Positions 26,493 to 54,470 are shown, numbered from the stretch's first letter. The stretch is 64,000 bases of DNA from an uncultured bacterium (GCA_964579145.1 CAZOGB010000006.1:3003-67002), one strand, 5' to 3'. Numbers and translations are program-made. Notes: generated by a model from the letters alone, not told the origin.

Positions 26493-26560
26493 TATGGCAC
26501 AATATAGAGGGGAAGGGTATAATGCACCTGCAAACACTATCGGGGAGGTGAATAGCGTCC

Positions 26561-30757: not shown

Positions 30758-30764
30758 GCAGGGT

Positions 30765-32781: not shown

Positions 32782-32841
32782 TGCCCGGTCCGGTGTTGCC
32801 TGTACGCCAGCAGAGCGAGTATCATTAAGTACCGAGCCTGA

Positions 32842-33954: not shown

Positions 33955-33956
33955 AC

Positions 33957-34950: not shown

Positions 34951-35127
34951 CAGCCGTCCATAACCTGCTTCAGCAGGTTTTGCCACGTGTTGCCTGCGAT
35001 TTCTAATCGCGAGGTTGCCTTACAAACATCCCTGCAACTAGAAGTTGCGGGCTACCCATGACGAAGCCTCCTGCGGAGGCTAACCTGCGCCAGCAGGTTT
35101 CGCCCGGTGTAGCCTGCGATTTCCAAT
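34951..35127. repeat. Intergenic array of small palindromic repeat units (two copies of the ~58-bp unit plus two extra hairpins)
   Basis: The first unit is taacctgcttcagcaggttttgccacgtgttgcctgcgatttctaatcgcgaggttgcc. The second is gctaacctgcgccagcaggtttcgcccggtgtagcctgcgatttccaatcgcaggggcag. Each contains aacctgc...gcaggtt and cctgcgatt...aatcgcagg inverted repeats. Between them lie palindromes gcaactagaagttgc and gcctcctgcggaggc. Confidence 0.6.
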
Positions 35128-35176
35128 CGCAGGGGCAGTACAAAACGAGGGGATCGATTAACCGAAACGAAGCGTG

Positions 35177-35205
35177 TTGACCTACTTTGTGAGAAAAGGT
35201 ATAAT
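35177..35205 (+). promoter_or_regulatory. Sigma-70-type promoter for rex
   Basis: TTGACC, a 17-nt spacer, then TATAAT (35200-35205). Confidence 0.6.
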
Positions 35206-35266
35206 TTTGCTTAGTTATGCTATATTTACAAACCCGTCAGTACGAGAGGAGTGTTGTTCAAGGAAG

Positions 35267-35962
35267 ATGACAAATCGCAAAAAGACGGAATCGAGCAATC
35301 ATCGCGTACCCATTCCCACGCTCGAGCGCATGGCAACCTATCTGCGTCTGCTCAGTGATCTGGAGGCTGCGAAGGTTCACACCGTCTCCTCTGCCGAGAT
35401 TGAGGAACAGACGGGCATCAACGCCGCGCAGTTTCGCAAAGACCTCTCCTATTTCGGCGAGTTCGGCAAGCCGGGGGTTGGGTACAGAGTCAGTGAACTG
35501 CACCAGCGGATTGCCCGTATCCTCAAAATCCACCGCGAACAGCCCATGTTGCTGGTCGGCGCGGGCAACCTGGGGTCTGCGCTGGTAGGGTATCCCGGAC
35601 TGCGTGAACACAAGTTCATTATCGCCGCGGTGTTTGATAACAACTATGCCAAGATAGGCAGGCTGTTGTGGGACCACGAGATTCTGGACGTGAACCGGCT
35701 CAAAGAGGTCAACGAGCGCATCCGGGCACGCATCGGCATCATCGCCGTTCCAGCCAGCGCAGCGCAGGAGGTCGCAGACAGGCTGGTGGAGGCGGGGGTC
35801 AAAGCCATTCTGAACTTTGCGCCAACCATCCTGCGCGTCCCCGAAGGGGTGACGGTGCGTAACGTCTCGTTCCTGCAGGAGCTGGCGGTGCTGTCGTACC
35901 ATCTGGAGCACGAGGAAGAGCACGCTGGCGCATGGTCTGCCCACCAGATTGACGGCGTATGA
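35267..35962 (+). CDS. rex: Redox-sensing transcriptional repressor Rex
   Basis: IPTLERMATYLRLL...FGEFGKPGVGYRV...LLVGAGNLGSALVGY carries a winged helix plus a Rossmann NADH-binding domain typical of Rex. ATG at 35267 follows AAGGAAG. Confidence 0.85.
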   Translation: MTNRKKTESSNHRVPIPTLERMATYLRLLSDLEAAKVHTVSSAEIEEQTGINAAQFRKDLSYFGEFGKPGVGYRVSELHQRIARILKIHREQPMLLVGAGNLGSALVGYPGLREHKFIIAAVFDNNYAKIGRLLWDHEILDVNRLKEVNERIRARIGIIAVPASAAQEVADRLVEAGVKAILNFAPTILRVPEGVTVRNVSFLQELAVLSYHLEHEEEHAGAWSAHQIDGV

Positions 35963-36858
35963 TGTGGCGATCCCTGCAGGTATCACCAGAGGAACTGCGC
36001 TGTGATGTCACTCTGGTGTGCGGGCAGTCCTTTCGCTGGAAGCCGTTGAACGCGAATACATGGCGCGGCGTGCTCGGTTCGTACGTGGTGACCCTGCGCC
36101 AAACCGAAGACGACGTACTGTACCAGTGCATCCCGGAAGCCGACATTACGAACCTCCTGCGCGACTATTTTCAGCTGCACGTCCCCCTCGCGCTGCTGTA
36201 TCGGCAGTGGCAGAGGGCGGATAGCCGTTTTGCATGGGTCGCCCCCGCCTTCCCGGGCTTGCGCGTGCTTCGCACCGACCCCGTGGAGTGCCTCTTCAGC
36301 TTCCTCTGCTCCAGCGCGAACAATATCGCACGCATTACCCGCATGGTGAACAACCTGTGCGCTCGCTATGGGCAACCGCTGGCAGAGGTGGACAGTGTAG
36401 TTTACCATCGGTTTCCATCGGTTGACGCACTGGCGCGAGCATCGGAAGAGGAACTGTTCGCGCTGGGGTTCGGTTACCGGGCGCGGGTGCTGGTGCGGGC
36501 GGCAGGGGAACTGGCCCAGCGGGGAGAGGAATGGCTGTTGCGCCTGCGAGAGGTCTCTTACGAGGAAGCCCATCATGCGCTGGTCACCTTGCCCGGCGTG
36601 GGGCACAAAATCGCCGATTGCGTGTGTCTGTTCTCGCTGGACAAGCCGCAGGCAATCCCGGTGGACACGCACGTGTGGCAGATTGCCCGGCGCGACTATC
36701 TGCCGGAGCTGAACGGGCGGAGCCTGACGGAGCGGGTGTACTGGCAGGTTGGCGATTTCTTCCGGGCGCGGTTTGGCGATTACGCGGGCTGGGCGCACAA
36801 CGTGCTCTTCGCCGCCGAACTATCCGCTTTTCGAAAGCGGGTGATGGATTCAAGATAA
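35959..36858 (+). CDS. ogg1: 8-oxoguanine DNA glycosylase/AP lyase, OGG1 type
   Basis: The helix-hairpin-helix-GPD motif LPGVGHKIADCVCLFSL...D (the catalytic Lys/Asp region) and the OGG1 N-terminal domain. The start overlaps the rex stop as ATGA. Confidence 0.8.
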   Translation: MMWRSLQVSPEELRCDVTLVCGQSFRWKPLNANTWRGVLGSYVVTLRQTEDDVLYQCIPEADITNLLRDYFQLHVPLALLYRQWQRADSRFAWVAPAFPGLRVLRTDPVECLFSFLCSSANNIARITRMVNNLCARYGQPLAEVDSVVYHRFPSVDALARASEEELFALGFGYRARVLVRAAGELAQRGEEWLLRLREVSYEEAHHALVTLPGVGHKIADCVCLFSLDKPQAIPVDTHVWQIARRDYLPELNGRSLTERVYWQVGDFFRARFGDYAGWAHNVLFAAELSAFRKRVMDSR

Positions 36859-36923
36859 TCGTAACTAGCTCCCCGGCTCTGTCAGTGTGAGACTGGGGTT
36901 TCAAATCTCTCAGACCTGCAGAG

Positions 36924-36980
36924 GCTAACCTGCGCCAGCGGGTTTTGTTCTGTGTTGCCTGCGCCCTCCAGTCGAAAGGT
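36924..36980. repeat. Diverged copy of the palindromic intergenic repeat unit
   Basis: gctaacctgcgccagcgggttttgttctgtgttgcctgcgccctccagtcg is the same 5' half as the units at 35069 and 41936. It lies between convergent genes. Confidence 0.5.
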
Positions 36981-37015
36981 TCGGAGTGAGAGGACACCCT
37001 GCCGCCGTTTGCTAT

Positions 37016-37456
37016 CTATCGGGATTCTTCATTTTGCAGGTCGAAACTGCGAACTGTGTTCACCAGGCGCTGTACCAGCGGCGGATCAAGCTCCTCGAAA
37101 CTCTTGCTGATGCCCGTTGCTACCAGATAGCAATCCGAGTACGGCAGGTAATCCACCACGTTTTCGGGCGTAATGCCACTGGCGATTGCCAGCGGAAAGT
37201 CGCCTAATGCGGTTTTCATCCTCCTGATCTTCTCGACACTGGCTGCTATCCCTGTGCCAGCACCGCTGGTGGTCACAACATCCATAAACGCGCGGGCGCG
37301 AACGGCTGCAGATTCTAAGTGGTTAATCAGAAAAACGCCGTCTGCTTGCGCTTCCATCGCAATGGCAACATTTCGCAACATCTGTTTCAGAGACGCCACA
37401 TGCACCACAGGGAGAACCACATGCCCTCTCGGAAAAACCTCTCTGAATCTGGACAT
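37016..37456 (-). CDS. Short BtpA/SgcQ-like phosphate-binding (TIM-barrel-like) protein
   Basis: 146 aa. HVVLPVVHV...GADGVFLIN...VVTTSGAGTGIAASVEKIRR...PLAIASGITPENV resembles BtpA-family motifs but is about half the usual length. The start is supported by GGAGGTG 7 nt upstream. Confidence 0.4.
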   Translation of the reverse strand: MSRFREVFPRGHVVLPVVHVASLKQMLRNVAIAMEAQADGVFLINHLESAAVRARAFMDVVTTSGAGTGIAASVEKIRRMKTALGDFPLAIASGITPENVVDYLPYSDCYLVATGISKSFEELDPPLVQRLVNTVRSFDLQNEESR

Positions 37457-37575
37457 ATCACTACACCTCCATTGCTCTTGTTCGTATTTAACAGATTATA
37501 ACACAACAGTCACGCAGGGTTTTCCACATGCTCTGGTACAATAATGCTCAGAAAGTCTTCAGAGAGGTGGTGCAG

Positions 37576-38046
37576 ATGAGCGTTTTGGAAGGACAACCGG
37601 CTCCCGACTTTGCGCTTCCGACAGCAGACGGCAACACCATCCGCCTTTCGGACCTGCGTGGCAAAAGGGTGGTGCTCTATTTCTATCCCAAAGACGACAC
37701 GCCCGGCTGTACGAAGGAAGCGTGCTCCTTTCGCGATAACCTGGGTGCACTGCAGGGGATGGGCGTGGTGGTGCTGGGCGTCAGCCCCGATAGTGTCGCC
37801 TCGCACCAGAAGTTTGCTCAAAAATACGGGCTGACGTTTCCCCTGCTGGCAGATGAGGGCGCACAGGTCGCCACCACCTATGGCGTGTGGAAGGAGAAAC
37901 AGCAGTACGGCAGGCGTTACATGGGCATCGAGCGCACCACCTTTATCATCGACGAAGAGGGCATCGTGCGCCGGGTGTTCCCGAAAGTAAAAGTGGACGG
38001 TCACGTCGAAGAGGTAATGGAGGCGATTCGCGCTCTGGAGGCATAG
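37576..38046 (+). CDS. bcp: Thiol peroxidase Bcp (peroxiredoxin Q type)
   Basis: VLYFYPKDDTPGCTKEACSFRD is the peroxiredoxin active site with the resolving Cys 5 residues downstream. ATG at 37576 follows GAGAGGTGG. Confidence 0.85.
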   Translation: MSVLEGQPAPDFALPTADGNTIRLSDLRGKRVVLYFYPKDDTPGCTKEACSFRDNLGALQGMGVVVLGVSPDSVASHQKFAQKYGLTFPLLADEGAQVATTYGVWKEKQQYGRRYMGIERTTFIIDEEGIVRRVFPKVKVDGHVEEVMEAIRALEA

Positions 38047-38048
38047 CG

Positions 38049-38648
38049 ATGAGACGTTACGCACTGCTGGTGATTGCCCTGCTGTCTCTCTGGCAGACGG
38101 CATGGGCGCAGGCTCCCAAGATACCCGACGCGGTGCAGAAGGCGAACGAGGTACTGATGGCGCTGGCAGATATCGACCTTCTGCTGGTGCTGACCTCCTT
38201 AAAGCTGGACAAAGAGCAGATGGGCAAAATCAAGCCTCTGCTGGAACAGGCACAGAGCGACCTGCTTCGCATGGAGGAACGCAACGCACAGGCTTTGCTG
38301 AGCCTCCGTGACGAGGTGATGTCCGCGAGGAAAGAGGCGCTGAAGGGCAAAACACCCCCGGAAGAACTGCGCAAGAAACTGCAAGAGGCGGATAATGCCG
38401 CCGCGCAGCTGCGCCTCAAAACGATTGACCAGGTGGTACGCACCCTGTGGGCGAAGCTGGATGGCATCCTTTCGGATACTCAGAAACAGACCATCGCCAA
38501 CCAGGCACGCGAGATGATGCGCAGTCTGCGCCGCCCCAACGCCGACAAAGCGAGCCGCAAGGAGCTTGGCGAGTTCTTCACCCAGGAGGTTTTGCTCGCT
38601 CCCCGCACCCTGCCCTTGCTGGAGGAATTACAAAAGGGAACTGAATGA
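38049..38648 (+). CDS. Secreted periplasmic alpha-helical protein (possibly Spy/CpxP-like)
   Basis: Signal peptide MRRYALLVIALLSLWQTAWA. Helical, K/E/Q-rich mature region with the LSDTQKQ motif. ATG at 38049 lies immediately after the bcp stop. Confidence 0.5.
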   Translation: MRRYALLVIALLSLWQTAWAQAPKIPDAVQKANEVLMALADIDLLLVLTSLKLDKEQMGKIKPLLEQAQSDLLRMEERNAQALLSLRDEVMSARKEALKGKTPPEELRKKLQEADNAAAQLRLKTIDQVVRTLWAKLDGILSDTQKQTIANQAREMMRSLRRPNADKASRKELGEFFTQEVLLAPRTLPLLEELQKGTE

Positions 38649-39895
38649 GCCACATCGCCACCGAACCGTCGGTCGTGCGCCGCAACATCATCGCCATTAT
38701 CGGCGATGTGGCGTTCTTCATGGTGGGGTTTTCGTGTTTCGACGCCACCACCGTGATGCCACAGTTCCTGCGCGAGCTGGGAGCCTCGCCCGGACTGATA
38801 GGGGTTATCAGCGGACTGCGATTGCTGGCGCTGTTCGCTCCTCAGCCGTACGTGGCACACTGCATTCACGGAAGGAGGCGCGTGAAATCGTTTCTGGTTA
38901 CTGCCTGCATAGTCGGCAGGCTTCCCATGTTCGTGCTGTTTCTGCTCGTATGGTTTTTCGGTCATAATCACACGCTGGCGCTGTGGGCTTTCGTCTTTTT
39001 CTCCCTGCTCTTTATCGCCTCGGATGGATTCAGCATCGTGCCGTGGACGGAAATCATCGGCAAGTCCATCCCCGAAACCATCCGCGGACGCTTTTTTGGA
39101 GCCATGCAGACCGTCTCCTCGCTGGCTGCGCTGATAGCGCCCGTGCTGGTCAGCAAGATACTCAGCGTCCGTTCGTTAGAGTTTCCTCGCAACTACGCGG
39201 TGCTTATCCTACTGATGGCGACGGGACTGTTCCTCTCGCTGGTGATGCTGTTGTTGATTCGCGAACCCGACAGCCACCCCCAGGAAGACCCCGACCGCAG
39301 TTTTGGGGAGCATCTGCGCCGAATCCCCACGCTGTGGCGTCACGACCCTGCCCTGCGCTGGGTGCTGACCACGCAGTTCCTGCTGGCGGGTGGCGGAGTG
39401 GCTTCCAGCTTCTATGTGCTGTACGCCCGCGAGCGGTTCGGCCTGCCCGAATCGTATGTGGCGATTTACCTGACCGCCCAGACCGTGGGCGCAGTCATCA
39501 CGGGACCGCTGTGGGGAGGGATGGCGGACCGCTTTGGAGCGGTACGTGCCCTGAAGGTAGTGGTCTCGCTGGCGATAGTGCCTCCCCTAGCGGCGCTGTT
39601 GATGCCCGTTGCCTGGGGGTTTGTGCTGGTTTTCGGTTGCCTAGGCGCGCTCAACTGGAGCCTGTGGAACGCCTTTACCAATACCATTCTCTCCATCGCG
39701 CCTCCAGCCGAGCGCCCCACCTATATCGCCCTGCAGAACTTCATGAACCTGCCAGCCTCCATCGCGCCCTTTGTTGGTGGTTTGATAGTCGGCTGGGCAG
39801 GCTATCCCGCGGCATTTGTTACCACCGCCGTGATGGTGACGCTGGGCGCACTGAGTGCCCGACGCATCCCGCAGGCACGCCCCGTGGGCAGGTGA
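38645..39895 (+). CDS. MFS transporter
   Basis: 12 predicted TM helices. The start overlaps the upstream stop (ATGA). Confidence 0.8.
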   Translation: MSHIATEPSVVRRNIIAIIGDVAFFMVGFSCFDATTVMPQFLRELGASPGLIGVISGLRLLALFAPQPYVAHCIHGRRRVKSFLVTACIVGRLPMFVLFLLVWFFGHNHTLALWAFVFFSLLFIASDGFSIVPWTEIIGKSIPETIRGRFFGAMQTVSSLAALIAPVLVSKILSVRSLEFPRNYAVLILLMATGLFLSLVMLLLIREPDSHPQEDPDRSFGEHLRRIPTLWRHDPALRWVLTTQFLLAGGGVASSFYVLYARERFGLPESYVAIYLTAQTVGAVITGPLWGGMADRFGAVRALKVVVSLAIVPPLAALLMPVAWGFVLVFGCLGALNWSLWNAFTNTILSIAPPAERPTYIALQNFMNLPASIAPFVGGLIVGWAGYPAAFVTTAVMVTLGALSARRIPQARPVGR

Positions 39896-39898
39896 ACC

Positions 39899-41827
39899 CT
39901 AACCATGCACCCAGCGCAATGCCTCCGCGTCGGGTAGGGGAGATGGCGAGACTGTCACCGTCGGCGCAAAGGCAGATAGAGGCAACCGCCGCGCCTCCTC
40001 GTCCGAAAGGTGATGCACCAGCACTCGCGCGGGATATGCCAGCACCGCCGCTGTTGCCCAGTCTCCCAGCCTGCGAATGCCCGGCACCCACACGTTCTGC
40101 AGGAAAAAGCCATTACTGCCGTCACAGCCGTTCAGGTCAGCCACCACTGCGTGCATGCCTCGCTCGCAGGATCCCGCCAGCAATGCCCACCAGCCTGCTC
40201 CCTCCACGCCAACCAGCGACACCTGCCGAATGCCCCGTTGAGAGCGCAGGAACGCCAGCGCGGTCAGCGTGTCCTGAACCTGCCACTGCATATCGGTGCG
40301 GTTAAAGGTTTCCGGGAAGTTTCCCTTCAGTTCGCGCCTGCCGAACCGCCGCAGATGGTCGCCCGTGCCGAATGGGTCTGCGGTCACCACTGTGTAACCA
40401 GCCGACAACCAGTCGCGAAGTTCCTGTTCACGCTCTAGCCACGCCTGCGTACCGCCCGGATGCAGTAACAGCACGGCTTTTCCCGTGCGTCCACCATCTG
40501 GCTCAAAGAGTCCAGCGAACAATACCTCGCGCGTGACACGTCGCCGAAGCGCAAAATATCCGTGCGGAACGGGAGCATTTCTCCGTTCTGTGCTGAGCAC
40601 CTCTACTTGCGCGGGCGTGACCGTCTCCACCGCAAGCGTGTGCTTCCATGCAGTGCCTATCCACCGTCGGAAGGCAGGGATGCCGCCTGTCGAGCGCGGG
40701 AAGTGAGAGCGTAACAGCTCCGCATCGCGCTGGCGCAGGGATTCCAGCACCGCCTCTCCGCGCGCAAAGCCCGGGGGCAGGGTTCCATCGGGAAAGACGC
40801 GTACCTTCTCGGGATGGTCTACGGTGAACGGAGGCTCGTGGTCGGGCGCCTCTACTCCCAGCCACCTGCCGAAAAAGGCGTACACCGCCTCGCGGCTGGC
40901 GCGGTTATAGTTATGATCTGCCTCATAGCGCACCGCCGATATCCGCGCCTCCGCACCCAGCAAAGCGTATATCGCCCGGGCAGCGGGGTACTCCTCTTCC
41001 ATGGTGTGGTTCGTCCAGTCGCCGGTGGCGGCGACCAGGAGGAGCGGGCGCGGCGCGGCGAGCGCGGCAATCTCCACGTTGTTGGTGGGTTCCAGCCTCA
41101 GTCCCGGCGCGTTCTCACAGAAACAGCCACCCTGATAGTGCGCGGATACCATGCACACCGGCGCCGCTGCTGATACACGACTGTCCACTGCCGTCAGCAG
41201 GAAGGTCTGAGTGCCCCCGCCGGACGAGCCGGTGCACCCGATGCGTTTGCTGTCCACATCTTTCAGCGAGAGCAGGAAATCCAGAGCGCGGATGCTGTTC
41301 CACAACTGCAGGCGCAGGAGATGAATACCCCACAGTTCCCACTCCTTCGAGATGCGCTGGTGGGGCAACTGCAGGCTATCGTTGTAACCGACCATATCGT
41401 ACGAGAACGCGATGTAGCCCTGTCGCGCGAGGTTGACGCTTAGCCCCGCATAGGAGGTGGCATTGTTGTCATTGGGATCGTTTTCCAATCTGCCGTTCCT
41501 GGCATGTCCGTGGGGGCACAGCACCGCGGGGAAGGGGGGCTTTCTGCCTACCGGGCGATACAGGTTACCCGTGCACAGGAAGCCCGGAAAGCTCTGGAAA
41601 TACACTTTCTGCACGCTGTAGTCCGCGTGCTCGATACGTCCAAAAACCTGTGCCTTCAACGGCGTGCGAGGCGGCAGGGGAAGCAGTCCTGCGCTGCTGA
41701 GGATATGTTCTCTCAACCACCGCGCCCGCGCCTCCCACTGCTGGCGGGAAGTATAAGCGGGCGTGGGCAGGTGCATCTCTCCATGCCGGACGTTGGTCAC
41801 CCGCTCATCACGCAACGGAGCCTGCAT
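39899..41827 (-). CDS. Alpha/beta hydrolase family protein (acetylxylan-esterase-like, two-domain)
   Basis: The nucleophile elbow is GCTGSSGGG within an alpha/beta-hydrolase core. Start is reassigned to the ATG at 41827 (MQAPLRDE...) with GGAGGA 6 nt upstream. The listed start at 42043 would translate the intergenic repeat element. Confidence 0.65.
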   Translation of the reverse strand: MQAPLRDERVTNVRHGEMHLPTPAYTSRQQWEARARWLREHILSSAGLLPLPPRTPLKAQVFGRIEHADYSVQKVYFQSFPGFLCTGNLYRPVGRKPPFPAVLCPHGHARNGRLENDPNDNNATSYAGLSVNLARQGYIAFSYDMVGYNDSLQLPHQRISKEWELWGIHLLRLQLWNSIRALDFLLSLKDVDSKRIGCTGSSGGGTQTFLLTAVDSRVSAAAPVCMVSAHYQGGCFCENAPGLRLEPTNNVEIAALAAPRPLLLVAATGDWTNHTMEEEYPAARAIYALLGAEARISAVRYEADHNYNRASREAVYAFFGRWLGVEAPDHEPPFTVDHPEKVRVFPDGTLPPGFARGEAVLESLRQRDAELLRSHFPRSTGGIPAFRRWIGTAWKHTLAVETVTPAQVEVLSTERRNAPVPHGYFALRRRVTREVLFAGLFEPDGGRTGKAVLLLHPGGTQAWLEREQELRDWLSAGYTVVTADPFGTGDHLRRFGRRELKGNFPETFNRTDMQWQVQDTLTALAFLRSQRGIRQVSLVGVEGAGWWALLAGSCERGMHAVVADLNGCDGSNGFFLQNVWVPGIRRLGDWATAAVLAYPARVLVHHLSDEEARRLPLSAFAPTVTVSPSPLPDAEALRWVHG

Positions 41828-41897
41828 CTTCTGTCCTCCCCCGAAGGATACAATGATGGAGGTGTGATACGTTGATAGGGGATGTTTTTCCTGCTGA

Positions 41898-42040
41898 GCA
41901 CTATTTTGGAGTGCTGAAGCTTGCTTCAGCAGACCCTTAACCTGCGTGAGCAGGTTTCGTTCTGTGTAGCCTGCGATTTCCAATTGCAAGGGCAGAATCT
42001 TTGGACCGCTGCAGCACGGCTTCAGCAATCCATAAACCTG
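41898..42040. repeat. Palindromic intergenic repeat cluster (same family as 34951..35127)
   Basis: Three pieces in order. First, the gctgaagcttgcttcagc hairpin. Second, the unit cttaacctgcgtgagcaggtttcgttctgtgtagcctgcgatttccaattgcaagggcag. Third, gctgcagcacggcttcagc. Confidence 0.6.
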
Positions 42041-42046
42041 CACTGT

Positions 42047-43114
42047 TCACTCATCCCCAATTGCGCCGAAGTTGCGCACCAGAATACCGAAGTCGAACAG
42101 GGTGACCTCTTCATCCCCGTCCAGGTCGGCATTTGGGTTCCAACCGCTGTCACCGGGCATCGTGCCAAAGGCAGACACCAGCTGCCCGAAGTCAAACAGC
42201 GTCACCTCGTTATCGCCGTCGATGTCCCCGTTGGTCAGCGTGAAGTTCGCTATGGTATCGCCCGTGATGGAGACGTCCGTCAGCGTCTGTCTCAGCCAGT
42301 GAGAAGCCTTCGCGGACAGGTCGTAGGTGCCGCGCAGGAGAGTCTGGAACGAGTATCTGCCCTCCCCATCAAGGTTGACCACGTGCGTTTCCATGGCGTC
42401 GGTGCTTCCCGGATTGCGTATCTCCATAGTGACCGGTATGCCTGTTAGGTCGCCCTCGTAGTCCCTCAATTCCACTGTGCCGCTGATGGTGACGGTTGCT
42501 CTGCCTTCAATGGTGAAGGCAAGGTCCTGTTCGGTGAGCCAGCCTCCGCCCACTGGGTTGCCCCCAAAGCCCCAGCCGCCGCCCGGGTTGTGCAGGTAGA
42601 ACGGCTCGCCGAGCGTGGGGCTGGTGCGAAGCCAGAACCACTGTCCGCCGTCATTGCCCGTGCCGTCGTTGTTGAGGTCAAAGGGACGCTGAACCCATGC
42701 GCTCAGGTAATAGGTGCCGGGCGGCAGATAGAAGCCGTTCAGTTCAAACACCAGGTCCGCCCGCCTCCGCAGGGGCCACTCTCCCGGCTCCAGCACCACC
42801 TCCGTGCCCATCGCCACCACGTCTATCACATCTACATGCGGCGCAGGCGAGATGGACAGATACACCCCCAGGTTATAGGTGGGGTCGCCCTGCTCACTGC
42901 CGTAAACCGTTACATGGTCAATCCACCAGCCGGGTTCAGGCACGGTGAAATCATCAAACAGCCAGACCGAATAGATGCGGTTTGCGGTGTCGGTGAAATC
43001 CTGAGCGGGACTGCCCCGGCTGACGCCATCCCAGGGCTGGTCCCACAGCACATCGGCGCGAAGTACGGAGACACCAAATGCCAGCGCCAGCAACAGCGAT
43101 GCAAGCCACTTCAT
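42047..43114 (-). CDS. Secreted protein with C-terminal dockerin-type calcium-binding repeats
   Basis: Signal peptide MKWLASLLLALAFGVSVLRA. Two tandem dockerin-like segments: DIDGDNEVTLFDFGQLVSAF and DLDGDEEVTLFDFGILVRNF. Confidence 0.65.
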   Translation of the reverse strand: MKWLASLLLALAFGVSVLRADVLWDQPWDGVSRGSPAQDFTDTANRIYSVWLFDDFTVPEPGWWIDHVTVYGSEQGDPTYNLGVYLSISPAPHVDVIDVVAMGTEVVLEPGEWPLRRRADLVFELNGFYLPPGTYYLSAWVQRPFDLNNDGTGNDGGQWFWLRTSPTLGEPFYLHNPGGGWGFGGNPVGGGWLTEQDLAFTIEGRATVTISGTVELRDYEGDLTGIPVTMEIRNPGSTDAMETHVVNLDGEGRYSFQTLLRGTYDLSAKASHWLRQTLTDVSITGDTIANFTLTNGDIDGDNEVTLFDFGQLVSAFGTMPGDSGWNPNADLDGDEEVTLFDFGILVRNFGAIGDE

Positions 43115-43142
43115 ACAAACCTCCTCCTTTCTCCCAAACCTG

Positions 43143-43535
43143 TCAGGGTTTGATGGAATCGAAGTATCTCCTCACCGGCTGGCGGTATTCGGGAGGAACG
43201 GTTTCACGCTGGAGGGCGCTTTCCGCCGCCCGCCGGTACTGGATGTACACGTCGTAGCTGGGCGTTCCACTGCTCACCGCATCAGGAGCGCCTCGCGTGA
43301 CAAAGGCAGGTGTCTCGCTGGGCCCGCTGGCAACGCCGGGAACCTGCGTGAACTTGCCACCCTTGACGTTCAAACGCGCCGTATCTTTGTCCTGCTGGGC
43401 GCGGTATTCCAGCTTCTCCAGTTTGGGACCGGTGGCAGGCAGTCCTGGTCCACCGCCGAAGCGCTTCTCATACGAGTTCATCGCTACGGGCAGTCCACCC
43501 ATCTCGCTCTTCAGCGCGGCAAGCAACGCTGCCAT
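43143..43535 (-). CDS. 130-codon ORF in-frame with and immediately downstream of the 403-codon ORF (possible C-terminal continuation)
   Basis: ATG at 43535 has no Shine-Dalgarno. It is in the same frame as 43581..44792, separated only by one TGA plus 15 open codons. See findings. Confidence 0.4.
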   Translation of the reverse strand: MAALLAALKSEMGGLPVAMNSYEKRFGGGPGLPATGPKLEKLEYRAQQDKDTARLNVKGGKFTQVPGVASGPSETPAFVTRGAPDAVSSGTPSYDVYIQYRRAAESALQRETVPPEYRQPVRRYFDSIKP

Positions 43536-43580
43536 TTCTGCCCACTGGCGCGCATCCAGCGCGCACGCCCCTGCGGACAG

Positions 43581-44792: not shown

Positions 44793-44864
44793 CCGTATCG
44801 CCCCCTCTGTACTCCTTTGCTTCAGTTTACACTCTATTAGCAGGACATTGCAAGCGGTCTGGTT

Positions 44865-44999
44865 CTATTCCAGCGAGGCGTAGCGCAGACGACGGGCAAC
44901 TCCTAACATCTGGCTCGCCGTCAGGCTCTCTTTGCCTGCATACGCCCGCTGGCGGTCGTTGCGGTCGAAAAGCTGGCGTAGTTGCTGACGCCTGTCCAT
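44865..44999 (-). CDS. Possible 44-aa basic protein, first gene of the operon
   Basis: Absent from the ORF track. ATG at 44999 is 6 nt after AGGGGGA. MDRRQQLRQLFDRNDRQRAYAGKESLTASQMLGVARRLRYASLE. It lies 72 nt upstream of the 403-codon ORF. Confidence 0.3.
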   Translation of the reverse strand: MDRRQQLRQLFDRNDRQRAYAGKESLTASQMLGVARRLRYASLE

Positions 45000-45180
45000 G
45001 CAGTATCCCCCTTATCCCTTGCCGGGCACGTGGTTTGTCCACGAAACAACCTTTCTCCTGCTCATGAAGAGAGGGAAAACAGTTTGACTTTCAGAAAGGT
45101 AAGCGGGGGCAAGCAGGAATCGGTGTGCGGGACATATAATTAGTGATGCAAAGCATTACGGGTACAGGGGGCGATGTATT

Positions 45181-46260: not shown

Positions 46261-46320
46261 AGACACGACGTTCCAGGATGGCTCCCGCCGCCCGTTTCAT
46301 CGCCGGTTTCAGCCGTTCGG

Positions 46321-47592
<1,272 letters not shown>

Positions 47593-47627
47593 TCAGATAG
47601 TATGCTTTTATCGCGAGAGACCGCGTT

Positions 47628-48683
47628 CTACGCGGTTCCCACTTGATTGTCCTTGCGCACCGGGTCCACGATGACCCCGTCGAACACCGCGGCGTTGGAC
47701 TTCACACGACAGCCCTTGCCCACCACACAGCGTACCAGCATCGTGTCGCGCATGACCACTGCCCCTTCCCATAGAATGCTCTCCTGAACGGTGGCGTTGT
47801 CTTCCACCACGCAGTTATCGCCCAGCACGGTGTATTCCAGCACCTTCGCGCCCGGACCGATTTCGCAGTTGTTGCCAATCACCACCGGGTAGCCAATTTC
47901 GGCGGTGGGGTCTATCTTGACATCCTTGCCAATCCACACGTATTTACGCCTCTCGGGATAGGGAATGCACAGGGACACTCTGCCCTGCATGGCGTCCACG
48001 TGCGTCTGCTGATAGGTGCGCAGGTTGCCCACGTCCTTCCAGTAAGAAGAGGTGAGGAAGCCGTAGAAGGGGCGTCGCTGTTCCAGCAAAAGAGGCAGAA
48101 GGTTCGCCCCGAAGCCATAGGTCACCCCGCGCGGAATCAGGTCAAATATCTCCGGCTCGAACACGTACACGCCCGTGTTCGCCGCGTTGGAAAAGATGAC
48201 CTCGCCGCGCGGTTTCTCTAAGAATCGCGTGATGCGTCCGCGCTCGTTCAACAGGGCGATACCGTACTCCGACGGGTCATCCACCAGAGACAGGGCGATG
48301 GTGGCAATCGCACGCTTCTCTTTATGGTAGCGCAGGAGGCGGGTGAGGTCCAGGTCGGTGATGTCGTCGCCGCCGATGACGATAAAGGTGTCGTCAAAGA
48401 AGTGCTCGCACCGTTTGACGCTACCGGCATCACCCCACAGGCGGTCTTCCTTGGAGTAGTGGATACGCACTCCCCACTTCGAGCCGTCACCAAAGTGGCT
48501 TTCAATCTGGTCGCCCAGATAATACAGGTTGACCATAATCTCGGTGAAGCCGTGCCGTTTCAGCAGTTCCACAATATGCTCCATGACCGGACGGTTCACG
48601 ATGGGCACCATCGGCTTGGGCACGTTTCGGGTAAGCGGGTCGAGGCGTGACCCCACTCCTGCTGCCAGAATCATCGCTTTCAT
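47628..48683 (-). CDS. Sugar-phosphate nucleotidyltransferase with C-terminal left-handed beta-helix
   Basis: MKAMILAAGVGSRLDPLTRNVPKPMVPIVNRPVMEHIV is the NTP-transferase G-loop. Hexapeptide repeats follow. The start overlaps the DegT stop as ATGA. Confidence 0.8.
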   Translation of the reverse strand: MKAMILAAGVGSRLDPLTRNVPKPMVPIVNRPVMEHIVELLKRHGFTEIMVNLYYLGDQIESHFGDGSKWGVRIHYSKEDRLWGDAGSVKRCEHFFDDTFIVIGGDDITDLDLTRLLRYHKEKRAIATIALSLVDDPSEYGIALLNERGRITRFLEKPRGEVIFSNAANTGVYVFEPEIFDLIPRGVTYGFGANLLPLLLEQRRPFYGFLTSSYWKDVGNLRTYQQTHVDAMQGRVSLCIPYPERRKYVWIGKDVKIDPTAEIGYPVVIGNNCEIGPGAKVLEYTVLGDNCVVEDNATVQESILWEGAVVMRDTMLVRCVVGKGCRVKSNAAVFDGVIVDPVRKDNQVGTA

Positions 48684-49807
48684 GATGGATGTTCCTCCTC
48701 GAATCGCCGCACCATCGCGGCAACGTAGTGAATTTGCTCCTCACGGAGGTCGGGATGCACGGGCAGGGAGAGCACCTCGTTCGCGGCGCGTTCCGCATGG
48801 GGGAAATCTCCCTGCTGATAGCCCAGATTTTGGTACGCCTCCTGCAGGTGCAGGGGAAGCGGATAATAGACAGCGGTAGCGATACCGTGTTCCTTGAGAT
48901 ATTGCTGCAACGCATCGCGCTGGTGGTAGCGGATGGTGAACTGGTGGTAGGTATGCAGGTTGCCCGGCGCGGTTTTGGGCAATATCGCCTGCGTGTCCTG
49001 CAGCAGATTCAGATAGAGGCGGGCGTTGTGGCGGCGACGTTCGTTCCACCCGTCCAGATAGCGCAGTTTCACGCGCAGAATCGCCGCCTGTATCTCGTCC
49101 AGGCGACTGCAGTAGCCGGGCACTTTGTAGAAGTAGGCTCCACCTTCTGCCCCATGTCCCCGCAACCGCTTGACGCTTCGGGCAATCTCTTCGTCATTCG
49201 TCAGCACGATGCCGCCGTCACCGAACGCGCCCAGGTTCTTGGTGGGGTAAAAGCTCATCGCCGTGGCGTGACCGACCGCCGCCACCGGAACACCGTTTTG
49301 CTGGGCGCCGATGGCTTGCGCTGAGTCGTTCACCAGATACACGTTGTGCGCTTGGGCGATGCGCCACAATGCCTCGCGGTCGGTCATCTGTCCAAACAGG
49401 TCCACCGGTAACAGCGCGCGGGTGCGCACGGTAATCGCTCGCTCAATCGCTGAGACATCGATATTATAGGTATCCGGGTCGATATCCACATACACCGGTC
49501 TGGCGCCCAGCCGAACGATGACCTCGGTGGTGGCGCCGAAGGTAAAGGGCGTGGTAATCACCTCGTCGCCCGGTCCGATGCCCAGCGCCGCCAGCGATAG
49601 CTCCAGCGCGTCGGTGCCGGACGCCACGCCGATGCCGAACCTCGCCCCGCAATAGGCAGCGACCTCTTCCTCCAGACGCTGAACATTCTCCCCCAGAATA
49701 AATCGCCCGCTTTCCAGCACGCGAGCAACCGCTGTGTCTATCTCCTGACGCAGTGCCTGATACTGCGCCTGAAGGTCCACCATCGGTACCTGTATTGTTT
49801 CGCCCAT
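48680..49807 (-). CDS. DegT/DnrJ/EryC1/StrS-family PLP-dependent sugar aminotransferase
   Basis: VDLQAQYQALRQEIDTAV...ILGENVQRLEEEVAAYCG and the conserved active-site Lys region. Confidence 0.85.
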   Translation of the reverse strand: MGETIQVPMVDLQAQYQALRQEIDTAVARVLESGRFILGENVQRLEEEVAAYCGARFGIGVASGTDALELSLAALGIGPGDEVITTPFTFGATTEVIVRLGARPVYVDIDPDTYNIDVSAIERAITVRTRALLPVDLFGQMTDREALWRIAQAHNVYLVNDSAQAIGAQQNGVPVAAVGHATAMSFYPTKNLGAFGDGGIVLTNDEEIARSVKRLRGHGAEGGAYFYKVPGYCSRLDEIQAAILRVKLRYLDGWNERRRHNARLYLNLLQDTQAILPKTAPGNLHTYHQFTIRYHQRDALQQYLKEHGIATAVYYPLPLHLQEAYQNLGYQQGDFPHAERAANEVLSLPVHPDLREEQIHYVAAMVRRFEEEHPS

Positions 49808-49818
49808 TCAGTTCCCTC

Positions 49819-50922
49819 TTACCAGTTTGTTCCTAAACGGCTTTCGCGCTGGATGCATGTTCCCGCTGCGATGACCGCGTCCATAATGCGGCAGCCCGCG
49901 GAGATGACCACATCGCGGTCGCAGATGACGCGGGTCAGGTCTGCTCCTTCTTCTACCTTCACCCCTTCGAGCAGAACACAATCCTCCAGCACGCTTCCCC
50001 GCGCGACATGACAGCCCGCGCCAATCACCACCGTACCGCGCAGGTGCACACCCTCCTCAATCACTGCATTTTCACCCACGTGCACGGTCGCTCCTGCGTC
50101 CAGCGTGGCTCGTACCTCTGCTCCTTTCATGCACCACAAGCCTTCCGCCTGCGGTGTGCCGGGCGGAGCCACCTTCGCGCGTCCCCGCAGGAGGTCGTTA
50201 GTCACTCTCCAGTAGTGGCTGGGTCCTGCCACGTCTACCCAGTAGCCATCGGCGGGAACGCCGTACAAGCCCTCGCCGCGCTCGATCATGCGCGGATAGA
50301 TTTCCCGCTCGATAGATACCATGCGCCCTTCGGGGATGCTCTCTATCACTTCCGGCTCCAGCACATAGAAGCCCGCGTTAATGTAATCCCAGCCCGTTTG
50401 CTCGATGTTCGGGTTGGCGGCGAGCGCTTTTTTCTGCTCTTCTGTTGGCTCTCGCCATGCCAGAACCCTGCCGTCGGCGTCCAGGTCAATCACACCGTAG
50501 GGATTCGGACTGGGTACCGCCTTCAGCGTAATGGTGGCTTGCGCCCCACGCTGGCGGTGCTGGGCAATAATCGCGCTCAGGTCAAAGTCGGTGACAACAT
50601 CGCCGTTGAACACGACCACCGCTTCCCGCCTCCACAGGCTCTTTGCAGCGTTGCGAATGGCGCCCGCCGTGCCCAGAGGCTGGTCTTCCCTGGCATAACG
50701 CATCTTCACCCCGAAGCGACTGCCGTCGCCAAAGTGGTTCTCTATCGCCTCCGCCATATAGTTGGTGGCGAACACAATCTCGTCCACGCCATGCGCCTTT
50801 AACAAAGCCACCTGATACTCCAGCAGGGGACGGTTGAGAATGGGCATAAGAGGTTTCGGACGAGTGTAGGTGAGCGGACGGAAACGGGTACCAAACCCAC
50901 CAGCAATGATAATCCCTTGCAT
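49819..50922 (-). CDS. Sugar-phosphate nucleotidyltransferase with C-terminal left-handed beta-helix
   Basis: MQGIIIAGGFGTRFRPLTYTRPKPLMPILNRPLLEY. ATG at 50922 has GGAGGTGA 7 nt upstream. The longer listed ORF adds an implausible N-terminus. Confidence 0.8.
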   Translation of the reverse strand: MQGIIIAGGFGTRFRPLTYTRPKPLMPILNRPLLEYQVALLKAHGVDEIVFATNYMAEAIENHFGDGSRFGVKMRYAREDQPLGTAGAIRNAAKSLWRREAVVVFNGDVVTDFDLSAIIAQHRQRGAQATITLKAVPSPNPYGVIDLDADGRVLAWREPTEEQKKALAANPNIEQTGWDYINAGFYVLEPEVIESIPEGRMVSIEREIYPRMIERGEGLYGVPADGYWVDVAGPSHYWRVTNDLLRGRAKVAPPGTPQAEGLWCMKGAEVRATLDAGATVHVGENAVIEEGVHLRGTVVIGAGCHVARGSVLEDCVLLEGVKVEEGADLTRVICDRDVVISAGCRIMDAVIAAGTCIQRESRLGTNW

Positions 50923-51076
50923 GGCATCACCTCCTATGCGCTGTCCAGCGTTTTTTGGGGAAAAGCCCTCACAAATTATACTCAGCGGATAAACCTTTTG
51001 TAAAGGTGAAGGGGATGGATGCCCTGCGCGGATTTCTGATAAAATAACAGCGAGACGAACGCACGGAGGTCTGTTG

Positions 51077-52528
51077 ATGGCGGAGTGGGAAGCCTGTATC
51101 GGCATGGAGGTCCATGCGGAACTGTTAACCGATAGCAAGATGTTCTGTTCCTGTGCCAATGCCTTCGGCGGCGAGCCGAACACGCGCTGTTGCCCGGTGT
51201 GTACCGGAATGCCCGGTTCCCTGCCGGTGATGAACAGGAAGGCGGTGGAGATGGTTCTGCGCACCGCGCTGGCGCTCAACTGCGAAATCTCCATGACCTC
51301 TATCTTCCATCGCAAAAACTATTTCTATCCCGACCTGCCCAAGAACTATCAGATTTCGCAGTACGGCGACACGCCCATCGGCAAGCGAGGCTGGCTGGAT
51401 GTGCCGGTGGATGGACGCATCGTGCGGGTGCATATCCGCCGGGTACACCTGGAGGAGGACACCGGCAAGCTGTTCCACCTGCCCACCGGCGAGAGCGCGG
51501 TGGATTACAATCGCAGCGGCGTGCCGCTGATGGAGATTGTTACCGAGTTCCCACCCGATATGCACACGGCGGAGGAGGCGCGAGATTACCTGCAGACCCT
51601 TCGCAACGTGCTGGTGTATCTGGGCGTGTGCGATGGGCGCATGGAACAGGGTAGCCTGCGCTGTGAACCCAACCTGTCGGTGCGCCCGAAGGGAAGCGAT
51701 ACCTTCGGCGTCAAGACGGAGCTGAAGAACCTCAACTCCTTCCGCGCGGTGCAGAGGGGCATTGAATACGAGATCCAGCGACATATCGCCGTGCTGGAAT
51801 CGGGTGGTAAGGTGGTGCAGGAGACGCGCGGCTGGAACGACGAGCGTGGCGCGAGCTTCCCCATGCGCACCAAAGAGTACGAGCAGGACTACCGCTACTT
51901 CCCCGAACCCGACCTCGTGCCGGTACAGTTCAGCGAGGAGTGGATTGAGCAGGTGCGCGCTTCCCTGCCCGAACTGCCTCTGGCGAAGCGTCAGCGGTTC
52001 ATGGAGCAGTACGCCCTGCCCGAATACGACGCCACCCTGCTGGTGGAGAGCCGCGCCACCGCCGACTACTTTGAAGAGGTGGTGAAACTGGGCGCGGAGC
52101 CGAAAGCGGTGGCGAACTGGATGAACGGCGACCTTGCGAGGTTGATGAACGCCGCGGGCATTGAGGATATTCGCGACTGCAAGGTAACCCCCCGACACCT
52201 GCGCGACCTCATCGGGCTGGTGCAGAAGGGCACGGTCACCGGAAGCGTCGCCAAGCAGGTGCTGGAAGAGGTGTTCAACACGGGAGTCGACCCGGCGCAG
52301 GTGGTGCAGGCGAAGGGACTGACGCAGGTAAGTGACACCGACCAGCTGCGAGCATGGGTTCAGCAGGCGATTGCCGAAAACCCCGACGCTGCCGAGAAGG
52401 TGCGCAACGGCAAACTGCAAACCCTGCAGTTTCTGGTGGGGCAGGTGATGAAACTCAGCCGCGGGCGCGCCAATCCCAACGAGGTACGCCGACTCATCGC
52501 CGAGGAACTGGGTGTGCAGGTGGAGTAG
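51077..52528 (+). CDS. gatB: Asp-tRNA(Asn)/Glu-tRNA(Gln) amidotransferase subunit B
   Basis: [14 protein letters not shown]...[22 protein letters not shown] is the characteristic GatB N-terminus. ATG at 51077 is 7 nt after GGAGG. Confidence 0.9.
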
Positions 52529-52538
52529 GGGAAACGGT

Positions 52539-53141
52539 TCAGGCAATCAGTCCCCACAGGCGAAGCAGTTCCACAATCGTGGGCTTTGGCTGCTGCCACA
52601 ACCACTCCACTCGAAGCCAAAGCCCCTCCAGCACCCTGCTGTGGTATTCCCCTTCCGAAGCCATCAGCACAGCGCGATACGCCCCGTCTTCCGCCAGCTG
52701 GTAGAACTCCGCGCGTCTGCGCTCGGGGTCTATCAGCCAGTATTCCCGCACGCCAGCCGACTCGTACTCGTAGAACTTCTCCCCGCGGTCGCGGGCGCGG
52801 CTTTCCGGGCTGATAACCTCCACCACCAGGTCTGCCGCGCCGTCAAGGTAGGTGCTTTTCAACCGGTGCAGGTTGGCGTTGGACACATACAGGATGTCGG
52901 GGGAACGGCTGGAGTTCGCCAAACGCATCTGGAATGGAGCAAAAACAACCTCACCCGCCGACGTAGAGTGGGCAAAGGTGAAAATGGCCTATAGAAGAAA
53001 CAACCCAACCTCCTGATGGATGCATGAGACCGGAGGCAATATCTCCACCCTGCCGTTAACCCACTCCGAGTGAGTATCTTCGTCCAGCCAGTCGTGGAAC
53101 TGCTCGAAGGTCATCTTTTCCGGCGGCGCCTGCTTCTGCAT
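52539..53141 (-). pseudogene. Uma2-family (DUF820) endonuclease gene interrupted by one in-frame amber codon
   Basis: The reading frame from the ATG at 53141 (MQKQAPPEKMTFEQFHDWL...HQEVGLFLL) continues in the same frame into ...AIFTFAHSTSAGEVVFAPFQMRLANSS...EYWLIDPERR. The only interruption is a TAG at 52989-52991. The total is 200 codons, which fits the Uma2 family. Confidence 0.6.
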
Positions 53142-53160
53142 AGCAACCACCTCTGTGATG

Positions 53161-54132
53161 TTAAGACACGTCCTGGGGTAGCGTAATGCTATCCAGTCGC
53201 GCTCCCATTTTGGCGACCACCTGCGCGGCGCAGTAGGCAGCTATCCTGCCCGATGCCTCCAGACTCTGCCCATGACACAACCCATACAGCAACCCCGCGG
53301 CGAACATGTCGCCCGCACCGGTGGCGTCTATCGCCTGAACGCGAAACGCGGGGATGTGGTAGACGGTCTGCTTCTGCCGAATCAGCGCGCCGCGGCTGTC
53401 CATCGTCACCACCGCGATGTCGCAGTAGTCCGCCAGCAGGCGCGAGGCGTCGTAGGGGTTATCGGTGCCGCTCAGCTCCTGTACCTCCGCCTCATTGCCA
53501 ATCAGCACGTCCACATGCTGTTCCAGCAGACGCTGAAAGTCTGCCCGGTGCCGACGCACGCAAAAAGTGTCCGACAGGCTAAATGCCACCCGCACGCCCG
53601 CTCTGTTCGCCTCGCTCATCGCGTGAAGCACCGACTGTTTCTGCGACTCGGTGTCCCACATGTAGCCGGTGATGTACAGATAGCGGCTCTGGCGCAGGTC
53701 ATCAATGTTCACCTCGTCGGGGCGCAGTTGCTGGCTGGCTCCCAGGTAGGTGCACATGGTGCGCTGGGCGTCTGGGGTTAACAGGACGAAAGAAACGCCG
53801 GTGCTTCCCTCGCCCACAGCCAGATTGGGCTTGACCCCCTTCTCACTGAGACTGCGCCGGTAGATGGCGCCGTGCTCATCGTCGGCTATTTTGCTGGTAT
53901 AGCAGGCAGAACCGCCCAGCAGTGCCACGCCAATCATCGTGTTTGCGCCTGAACCGCCCGCCTCCGAGTGCACCACCTGCCCGGCAAGGTACTGCATCAG
54001 CCGGCGCCGGTGTTCCTCGTCGATGAGAAACATCCCACCCTTTTGCAAACCCAGTGCATCAATCAGTTCGTCCTCTACCTTCGCCTGAAGGTCTACCAGC
54101 GCATTGCACATGCCGAACACGTCAAAGGTCAT
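53161..54132 (-). CDS. PfkB-family carbohydrate/nucleoside kinase (adenosine-kinase-like)
   Basis: FDVFGMCNALVDL...GGSGANT...DATGAGDMFAAGLLYG are the ribokinase-family signatures. The ATG at 54132 is preferred (GAGG 6 nt upstream). A GTG at 54144 is an alternative. Confidence 0.8.
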   Translation of the reverse strand: MTFDVFGMCNALVDLQAKVEDELIDALGLQKGGMFLIDEEHRRRLMQYLAGQVVHSEAGGSGANTMIGVALLGGSACYTSKIADDEHGAIYRRSLSEKGVKPNLAVGEGSTGVSFVLLTPDAQRTMCTYLGASQQLRPDEVNIDDLRQSRYLYITGYMWDTESQKQSVLHAMSEANRAGVRVAFSLSDTFCVRRHRADFQRLLEQHVDVLIGNEAEVQELSGTDNPYDASRLLADYCDIAVVTMDSRGALIRQKQTVYHIPAFRVQAIDATGAGDMFAAGLLYGLCHGQSLEASGRIAAYCAAQVVAKMGARLDSITLPQDVS

Positions 54133-54315
54133 TCCTTGCCTCACCCATACTTCGCCAGTGTTGCATTCGCAGTGTCTTTTTCACCATTTGCCTTCCCTTA
54201 CCCTGTTGTTCCACGAATTGGGGGAGACGAGTGCCCCTTCAGGGTGAAAAGCCTTAGAGATATGAAATCGTTGACAAAGTGCAGGCGCTTTGGATAGGAT
54301 GCAACACTTGGCAAA

Positions 54316-54470
54316 GCCTGCTGACGCAGGTATGGATTGCTGAAGCCATGCTTCAGCGCCCAAAACCACCTTTTACTCTCTGCCCTTGCGACTAGAAGTC
54401 GCAGGCAACACACAATAAAACCCGCTGACGCAGGCTAAGGGGTTGCTGAAGCAAGCTTCAGCACTCCAAA
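54316..54470. repeat. Palindromic intergenic repeat cluster (same family)
   Basis: Five hairpins in order: cctgctgacgcagg, gctgaagccatgcttcagc, tgcgactagaagtcgca, ccgctgacgcagg and gctgaagcaagcttcagc. These match units seen at 34951..35127 and 41898..42040. Confidence 0.6.

Follow-up and report, generated by a model that had tools for sequence, protein, structure and literature searches.

In a 64,000-nucleotide stretch of DNA from an uncultured bacterium (GCA_964579145.1 CAZOGB010000006.1:3003-67002; hereafter the window), we found that four intergenic loci carry small hairpin-forming repeats. These very probably represent a new family of repetitive extragenic palindromic (REP) sequences assembled into bacterial interspersed mosaic elements (BIMEs), a reading to which we give a probability of about 0.85. 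The assignment is based on a GTAG-tagged, bulged hairpin, two subtypes that pair only in inverted orientation, structured motifs between the REPs, arrays of variable length, specificity to one lineage, and diversification by paired stem changes. A preliminary description of this DNA had proposed a mosaic REP/BIME-like family without a known match, which is borne out by the tagged hairpin, the alternating orientation and the negative result against Rfam. While the kind of element is known, the family itself was previously undescribed, and no description of REPs in Armatimonadota was found in the literature searched. It adds a GTAG-tagged REP/BIME family from this phylum (class Chthonomonadia), in which a three-hairpin, two-flavour architecture is unusually explicit.

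The anatomy of the repeat was derived from 66 copies aligned with their flanks, and its modules were mapped by blastn-short over the window and the stretches collected from relatives (given below by L numbers). The motifs of the preliminary description are modules of one ~95-nt unit with three stem-loops, A, B and C. In the first flavour (F1), hairpin A reads TTTGGAGT-GCTGAAGC-TT-GCTTCAGC-A, with arms GCTGAAGC-N2/3-GCTTCAGC that are extended by GGAGT. Hairpin B is AACCTGC-N4-GCAGGTT, followed by a T-rich linker, TYGYYNNGT. Hairpin C (the CCTGCGATT hairpin) has GT(A/T)G directly before CCTGCGAYT-TCC-ARTCGCAAGG, so that a stem of 9 bp, in which one A bulges out, closes a loop of 3 nt. The second flavour (F2) keeps this plan and differs in the paired bases: the A2 loop is CAT, hairpin B2 is AGCCTCC-GCA-GGAGGCT, and hairpin C2 is GTAG-CCCGCAACT-TCC-AGTTGCAGGG. 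Both C1 and C2 are 26-28 nt long and carry an unpaired 5' GTAG or GTTG at the foot of the stem; of ~150 C1 copies, 80 have GTAG and 55 have GTTG as this tetranucleotide, and of ~90 C2 copies 67 have GTAG.

A 35-nt core, CCTGCNNNAGCNGGTTTYNNNNNGTGTWGCCTGCG, which covers the B hairpin, the linker and the start of C, matches the window without mismatch at five positions (34964+, 35084+, 36929+, 41941+ and 54400-), with zero matches expected from 100 shuffles. The motifs are present in all four loci where they had been placed. The ~58-bp unit was earlier counted four times; we found five core units, of which the fifth lies inverted at 54384-54434; with its copy on the minus strand, locus 4 holds the element of the other loci in inverted orientation. 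A sixth, truncated unit was detected by nhmmer at 54297-54364(-), and the F1 and F2 models gave no significant match in the window beyond the four loci (E<0.1). The modules of the four loci are as follows.

34946..34958, plus strand: locus 1, 3' half of an A-type hairpin (GCTTCAGCCGTCCA) at the truncated left edge of the cluster, read from the sequence and within the nhmmer F1 match 34947-35016.
34961..35014, plus strand: locus 1, F1 core unit with B1 at 34961-34980 (AACCTGC/GCAGGTT) and a GTTG-tagged C1 at 34987-35014; from the core pattern, the module map and both hairpins in the DNA fold.
35030..35083, minus strand: locus 1, inverted F2 core unit with a GTAG-tagged C2 at 35030-35056 and B2 (AGCCTCC/GGAGGCT) at 35061-35083; from the module map, the fold and nhmmer (F2, E = 4e-16).
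35081..35134, plus strand: locus 1, second F1 core unit with B1 at 35081-35102 and a GTAG-tagged C1 at 35107-35134; from the core pattern, the module map and the fold.
36926..36979, plus strand: locus 2, decayed F1 core unit, its B1 intact and terminator-like (T-rich tail) and its C1 hairpin destroyed; from the core pattern and the module map.
41905..41991, plus strand: locus 3, complete F1 unit with A1 at 41905-41931, B1 at 41938-41959 and a GTAG-tagged C1 at 41964-41991; nhmmer E = 5.5e-29.
42008..42034, minus strand: locus 3, inverted, slightly degenerate A2 hairpin from the module map, which pairs with A1 around B1 and C1 in the predicted fold.
54297..54364, minus strand: locus 4, truncated F1 unit without C1, with an A-type hairpin at 54331-54357 (CAT-loop flavour), B1 at ~54312-54331 and the linker; nhmmer F1 model positions 5-73, E = 8e-11.
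54384..54470, minus strand: locus 4, complete inverted F1 unit with C1 at 54384-54411, B1 at 54413-54434 and A1 at 54444-54470; from the minus-strand core pattern and nhmmer (E = 8e-26).

The mosaic proposed earlier is modular indeed, but the motifs given for it do not stand by themselves: each is a module, forward or inverted, of one two-flavour unit. The gctgaagc hairpin occurs in three perfect GCTGAAGC copies, as had been counted, with loops of 2-3 nt (TT, CAT) rather than N4, and once more in degenerate form (42008-42026). The two copies of tgcRactagaagtYgca also exist, and they are hairpin C seen on the other strand, namely C2 at 35030-35056 and C1 at 54384-54411, while cctgctgacgcagg is the inverted B1 hairpin. 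At locus 1, C2 and the C1 before it form a dimer, with the bodies inward and GTAG outward.

The order of the modules follows a strict grammar in which the two flavours alternate. Across the window and the loci of a close relative, Ch118 (introduced below), 96 C1 and 66 C2 modules were mapped, and the adjacency counts were B1>C1> (85), A1>B1> (50), B2>C2> (42), C1><C2 (37, with a spacer of 14-27 nt), <A2 B1> (24), C1><A2 (23) and <B2 A1> (20). F2 is nearly always inverted relative to F1, so that clusters read F1> <F2 F1> <F2. For the 63 clusters of this set, the medians are 6 modules and a length of 211 nt; the number of modules ranges from 2 to 15, and the longest cluster reaches 500 nt.

Published REPs are recognised by a GT[AG]G-tagged hairpin, inverted dimers, heterodimers and structured spacers (PMC3733652), and BIMEs are described as clusters of regularly spaced REP subtypes in alternating orientation with conserved inter-REP motifs (PMC2817692). 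The repeats studied here share these features: hairpin C is an imperfect palindrome in the 20-40 bp range with a GT[AG]G tag, it is extragenic, dispersed and of high copy number, and the module maps and adjacency counts reveal alternating subtypes with conserved motifs between them. Among the closest known systems are the BIMEs of E. coli (Y, Z1 and Z2 REPs; GTAG-3 family, Di Nocera et al. 2013), which are also extragenic, occur in many copies with a variable number of units per cluster, and consist of GTAG-tagged imperfect palindromes with a stem bulge, in at least two subtypes that form only heterodimers in alternating orientation with extra conserved inter-REP motifs. There is no sequence similarity to them, however, and the family differs in that its inter-REP motifs are two further perfect hairpins (A and B), its REP has a shorter stem (9 bp) and a shorter loop (3 nt), many of its clusters lie in divergent, promoter-bearing regions, and a cognate transposase was not found in the repeat-flanking DNA.

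Two other groups of REPs provide useful comparisons. The REPINs of Pseudomonas fluorescens (Bertels & Rainey 2011) are likewise recurrent inverted doublets with a short spacer, here C1> <C2, and are lineage-specific, vertically inherited and diversified in relatives. In contrast to a REPIN, which is one long hairpin, the arms of the frequent C1><C2 doublets are heterodimers that differ systematically and fold separately, and the units also chain into long arrays. Other GTAG-tagged REP families that cluster or have structured spacers, such as the SMAGs of Stenotrophomonas and the GTAG-23 family of Thermomicrobium roseum (PMC3733652), resemble our family in the tag, in stems of 6-9 bp with minimal loops and tolerated G:T pairs, in dimers with small stem-loops in the spacers, and in being species- or genus-specific, whereas their sequence is different, GTTG is a common tag here, and the location bias is not the same.

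We found 61 exact matches to the 35-nt core in 53 stretches on many contigs, and all of them belong to one of 185,579 species-representative genomes, the metagenome-assembled genome (MAG) of Chthonomonadia bacterium Ch118 (JABUFA01). The window and Ch118 are separate assemblies of close relatives, with syntenic stretches 91-95% identical, and one protein encoded in the window recurs unchanged as the product of a gene on a Logan contig (SRR11582147). Units at 60+ dispersed sites in this sister genome mean that the repeats are not local duplications, which the preliminary description had left as a possibility. A looser 27-nt pattern recovered 54 metagenome stretches, 51 of them from a single ENA assembly, FMJZ01, whose 99.75% identity to Ch118 means that it does not count as independent evidence; the three matches from other projects (L054, L059 and L092) lack modules and were set aside as probable chance matches.

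Outside these closely related genomes, a diverged B-C version was found in a relative with 78% identity in the orthologous hydrolase (L113:1103-1215, also in L114 and L115). It has two inverted ATAG-tagged C hairpins whose stems, CCCACGA/TCGTGGG, carry paired changes, and these flank the shared AACCTGC/GCAGGTT B stem plus an extra ATCCG/CGGAT hairpin. In the 21 kb examined of a relative at 80% identity, no version of the unit was present, and covariance-model matches in L110 and L111 were rejected as chance matches inside the OGG gene. Judged from the genomes searched, the family appears confined to one thermophile-related lineage of Chthonomonadia. Copy numbers in MAGs are probably underestimates, since assemblies are probably broken up by the repeats: the short-read contig L112 (5459 nt) ends within cluster 3 (L112:1-27), and three short Ch118 contig-end pieces (L006, L010 and L021) each carry a cluster, that of L010 abutting the end of the piece.

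An artefact, a local duplication or an element already known (CRISPR array, tRNA remnant, prophage or plasmid sequence) would share with these repeats the superficial likeness of short hairpin repeats, and this explanation is excluded. Dozens of contigs of an independent genome carry the units, as does a metagenome that was assembled separately. Rfam returned nothing at the gathering threshold or at E <= 1, ARAGORN found a single tRNA in the window, a tRNA-Gly at 21313-21387 and so away from the repeats, and neither BLAST against plasmids and phages nor scans of viral contigs matched the units. Unlike a CRISPR array, the units alternate in orientation and are separated by conserved modules instead of unique spacers.

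The hairpins themselves are under constraint. Standard pairs make up 99.1% of the stem cells of 45 distinct full F1 units, compared with 21-45% when the partners are slid, and the Watson-Crick share of stem cells exceeds 95% over all modules. One C1 pair changes from T:A to C:G in 10 of the 45 copies, and the differences between F1 and F2 in the B and C stems are paired (compensatory) changes. Among single changes in F1 stems, read on the F1-forward strand, G:T pairs outnumber A:C pairs (59 versus 24, p = 1.5e-4), while the matching transition classes in unpaired columns stand at 45 versus 36; this is modest evidence that the constraint acts on the folding of one particular strand, as single-stranded DNA or RNA. 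Single-strand DNA folds of the window loci reach z scores of -4.9 to -5.7 (locus 3, -31.7 kcal/mol, z = -5.2; locus 4, complete inverted F1 unit, z = -5.4), with the exception of locus 2, whose copy has lost hairpin C and whose fold does not improve on shuffles (z = +0.42).

All copies in the window are intergenic, as stated earlier. Locus 1 is flanked by a polysaccharide deacetylase gene and by rex, the rex promoter being 43 nt downstream of the locus; locus 2 by a convergent OGG gene and a truncated BtpA-like open reading frame (ORF); locus 3 by genes for a dockerin-domain protein and an esterase/hydrolase; and locus 4 by genes for a methyltransferase and a PfkB kinase. The hydrolase ORF at 39899-42043 (714 aa) had been said to read wrongly through locus 3, and this is correct, with the real start at 41827 and a product of 642 aa. 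The identical 642-aa hydrolase is called from this start in a public assembly, and among the next 20 listed homologues, 19 (72-82% identity, 638-653 aa) align over 99-100% of the 642-aa protein, the other being a 417-aa fragment. Such repeats are a hazard for annotation in that ORFs can be wrongly extended through them, as happened to the hydrolase N-terminus.

The placement of clusters was evaluated with our own codon-usage gene calls with start trimming, which gave 47 clusters with both flanks in the window and Ch118. There are 19 clusters between divergent, 25 between tandem and 3 between convergent genes. The earlier statement that copies lie mostly between convergent or tandem gene ends thus applies to the window and fails genome-wide. 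In the same loci, divergent arrangements account for 16% of the pairs of adjacent genes and for 27% of the intergenic nucleotides; tested against gene pairs the enrichment has p = 5e-5, and tested against nucleotides p = 0.027, a modest effect on rough gene calls. Between tandem genes, clusters sit at median distances of ~40-47 nt past the upstream stop and 83-127 nt ahead of the next start. A strong sigma70-like promoter stands just beyond the cluster in 20 of 63 cluster-to-start gaps, no promoter-like site occurs in 14 kb of sequence inside clusters, and B1 with its T-rich tail scores as terminator-like. Genomes of Chthonomonas are reported to be non-operonic (PMC4959169), and the divergent, promoter-proximal placement fits this organisation.

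These observations, together with the paired stems, the compensatory changes and the strand-specific tolerance of G:T, would speak for functional elements that, unlike mobile DNA, are selected by the host and act as structured 3'-untranslated-region or terminator modules or as DNA-level sites (cruciforms, topology, binding of nucleoid proteins or gyrase) that punctuate an operon-poor genome. The position of clusters ~40 nt past stop codons, the terminator-like B1, and the excess of clusters in divergent regions just ahead of strong promoters all suit such a role. We nevertheless consider it an unlikely explanation of the family. Copies in divergent regions cannot serve the mRNA of a neighbour, the divergent enrichment is small, decayed copies persist as at locus 2, the number of modules per site is highly variable (2-15), and clusters are gained or lost between ~93% identical genomes while the neighbouring genes are kept. 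Besides, function and selfish spread are compatible, as in the REPs of E. coli.

Comparison of the window with Ch118 shows that clusters change by unit-level deletion and recombination and sit at indels and a synteny break. From clusters 1, 2 and 4 it follows that cluster content differs between the ~93% identical genomes and that clusters lie at points of rearrangement. The complete unit of locus 4 belongs to a cluster with orthologues in Ch118 (L036) and in an FMJZ01 metagenome contig (L077); the Ch118 orthologue has an extra 67-nt F2 (B2-C2) unit, of which the window retains only the first arm, and a 14-nt indel is also present. Cluster 4 also has an orphan sigma70-like promoter (TTGACA-17-TAGGAT) directed into it at 54270-54300 of the window, and in Ch118 (L036) this promoter is followed by a ~450-nt insert with a small ORF that is missing in the window.

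At cluster 1 the difference is larger. The Ch118 orthologue of window 25495-36846 contains no module: a ~500-nt window segment (34658-35155) stands in place of 30 nt in Ch118, and these 30 nt include CACTCCAT, the tail of an A module, which looks like the remnant of a deletion. Two features adjoin the cluster.

34657..34906, strand not assigned: gene fragment of ~250 nt joined to cluster 1 on its left side; it matches part of a gene at a different cluster-bearing Ch118 locus (L010 1212-1736) with ~90% identity, has an internal deletion of ~245 nt, and is missing at the orthologous Ch118 site.
35177..35205, plus strand: rex promoter, sigma70-like TTGACC-17-TATAAT (11 of 12), 43 nt downstream of cluster 1 and conserved in Ch118.

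Synteny with Ch118 stops at 36846, 80 nt before cluster 2. The BtpA-like ORF adjoining this cluster (37016-37456, 146 aa) is truncated and covers positions 152-252 of 254 in the Pfam profile; it lies beyond the end of synteny and probably represents the remains of a gene at a junction of rearrangement. On the other side of cluster 2, the 8-oxoguanine glycosylase (OGG) at 35959-36858 belongs to the OGG1 type; it shares 42-58% identity with OGG1 proteins of animals and fungi, which in its hit list outrank every bacterial homologue outside the Armatimonadota lineage.

Several observations weigh against the overall REP/BIME reading, including its mode of spread. The tag is less strict than in the published consensus, 37% of C1 copies having GTTG, which falls outside GT[AG]G; degenerate tags are reported for several REP families (PMC3733652). 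Published REP families lie mainly between convergent and unidirectional genes (PMC3733652), while here 19 of 47 clusters are divergent and just 3 convergent, a distribution that departs from the location typical of classical REPs. No clean new insertion was found between the window and Ch118, and both genome differences that could be resolved look like deletions. Finally, no gene for a REP-associated tyrosine transposase (RAYT) or a Y1 transposase was found in 965 kb of repeat-flanking DNA.

The transposase searches covered up to 965 kb (0.89-0.96 Mb) of DNA selected for flanking these repeats, which is part of the genomes, and reached at least 1 kb on both sides at 39 of the 61 exact Ch118 sites. 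In this DNA no match was obtained by tblastn with E. coli RayT (the query is 99% identical to a real RayT), by a hidden Markov model (HMM) built from 120 enterobacterial RayTs (of low diversity and little added sensitivity), or by a motif regular expression and a relaxed scan for HUH / W[QE] / Y..NP, with motifs taken from the table in PMC6006769. Neither a parent insertion sequence nor TnpA/TnpB appeared in 0.96 Mb of it. The associated RAYT suggested in the preliminary description was therefore not located by any of these methods. RAYTs are normally single-copy genes flanked by their REPs within ~1 kb (PMC6006769), and because of this proximity the negative result counts somewhat against a classical REPtron. 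We also considered a hidden transposase among the multi-copy proteins beside clusters and rejected it, the candidates being prepilin-type (DUF1559-like) proteins and LacI regulators, besides spurious ORFs that run through the repeats.

Taking the evidence together, we regard it as likely that these are non-autonomous REP/BIME repeats that spread in the manner of RAYT-mobilised REPs, turn over by deletion, and have mixed effects on the host. The units are non-coding stretches of ~95 nt of DNA that can fold as a single strand, which presumably reached their 60+ intergenic sites by copy-and-paste of hairpin-forming single strands. The agent would most likely be an HUH tyrosine transposase of the REP-associated type (RAYT/TnpA-REP) acting in trans on the GTAG-tagged hairpin; for this step in itself we see about even odds. 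Clusters are afterwards altered by unit-level deletion and recombination, as the comparison with Ch118 shows. Between tandem genes, B1 and the T-rich tail after the stop may act as a weak terminator or protect the 3' end, whereas the ~40% of clusters in divergent regions lie upstream of promoters and outside the transcripts of their neighbours, where they are probably tolerated selfish DNA or, alternatively, could act only at the DNA level, for example by forming cruciforms or absorbing supercoils. Host effects are likely to be mixed in this way, a weak terminator after stops and neutral or DNA-level upstream of promoters.

The RAYT-negative result would also agree with an element like a MITE (a miniature transposable element with inverted repeats) moved by a conventional transposase other than a RAYT, in which the A modules serve as terminal inverted repeats (TIRs) of ~20 bp (TGGAGTGCTGAAGC... 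/ ...GCTTCAGCACTCCA) around a B-C cargo. In units of the form A1> B1> C1> <A2, as at loci 3 and 4, the minimum-energy fold does pair A1 with the inverted A2 and closes a stem around B and C, and the C1> <A2 adjacency is common (23 cases). MITEs and the palindrome-associated elements derived from IS200/IS605 are similarly small, non-coding, hairpin-rich, dispersed and non-autonomous. We think this origin quite improbable, however. Most B-C units have no bracketing pair of A modules, and the units chain alternately in arrays that are not MITE-like, with no single TIR-bounded insertion and, by eye only, no evident target-site duplication at the unit edges. The recurrent neighbours of clusters are prepilin-type and LacI-type genes, not a transposase, and the GTAG-tagged hairpin is specific to REP/RAYT systems.

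A further alternative is a REP-like system independent of RAYTs, in which the three-hairpin, two-flavour module was spread by an unrecognised enzyme or by recombination alone and is kept mainly upstream of promoters and between divergent genes of a genome poor in operons, where it would act on DNA as a cruciform, supercoil sink or insulator and not on mRNA 3' ends. We hold this to be rather doubtful next to the RAYT-type spread of REP/BIME repeats favoured above. Should complete genomes bear out both the promoter-proximal bias and the missing RAYT, this family would be of help in telling DNA-level and RNA-level roles of REPs apart.

Two other repeated features were seen in the same DNA. The window segments 19168-19256 and 22798-22924, repeats that also match the collected loci, were considered as members of the family and rejected, being coding sequence for a prepilin-type N-terminal methylation motif; paralogues with this motif form a large family, with 12 members in the Ch118 loci, and their genes often adjoin repeat clusters. 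At 63276-63551 the window holds a second, unrelated family of GC-rich palindromic repeats (e.g., CCTCTCCCCGCGTCGGGGAGAGG, CCCTTCCCTGCGAGGGAAGGGG and CCTCCCCGCCTGCGGGGAGG), with several hairpins in a row, which also occurs in the Ch118 loci L005, L017, L030, L033 and L043, and the lineage may thus host more than one REP-like family.

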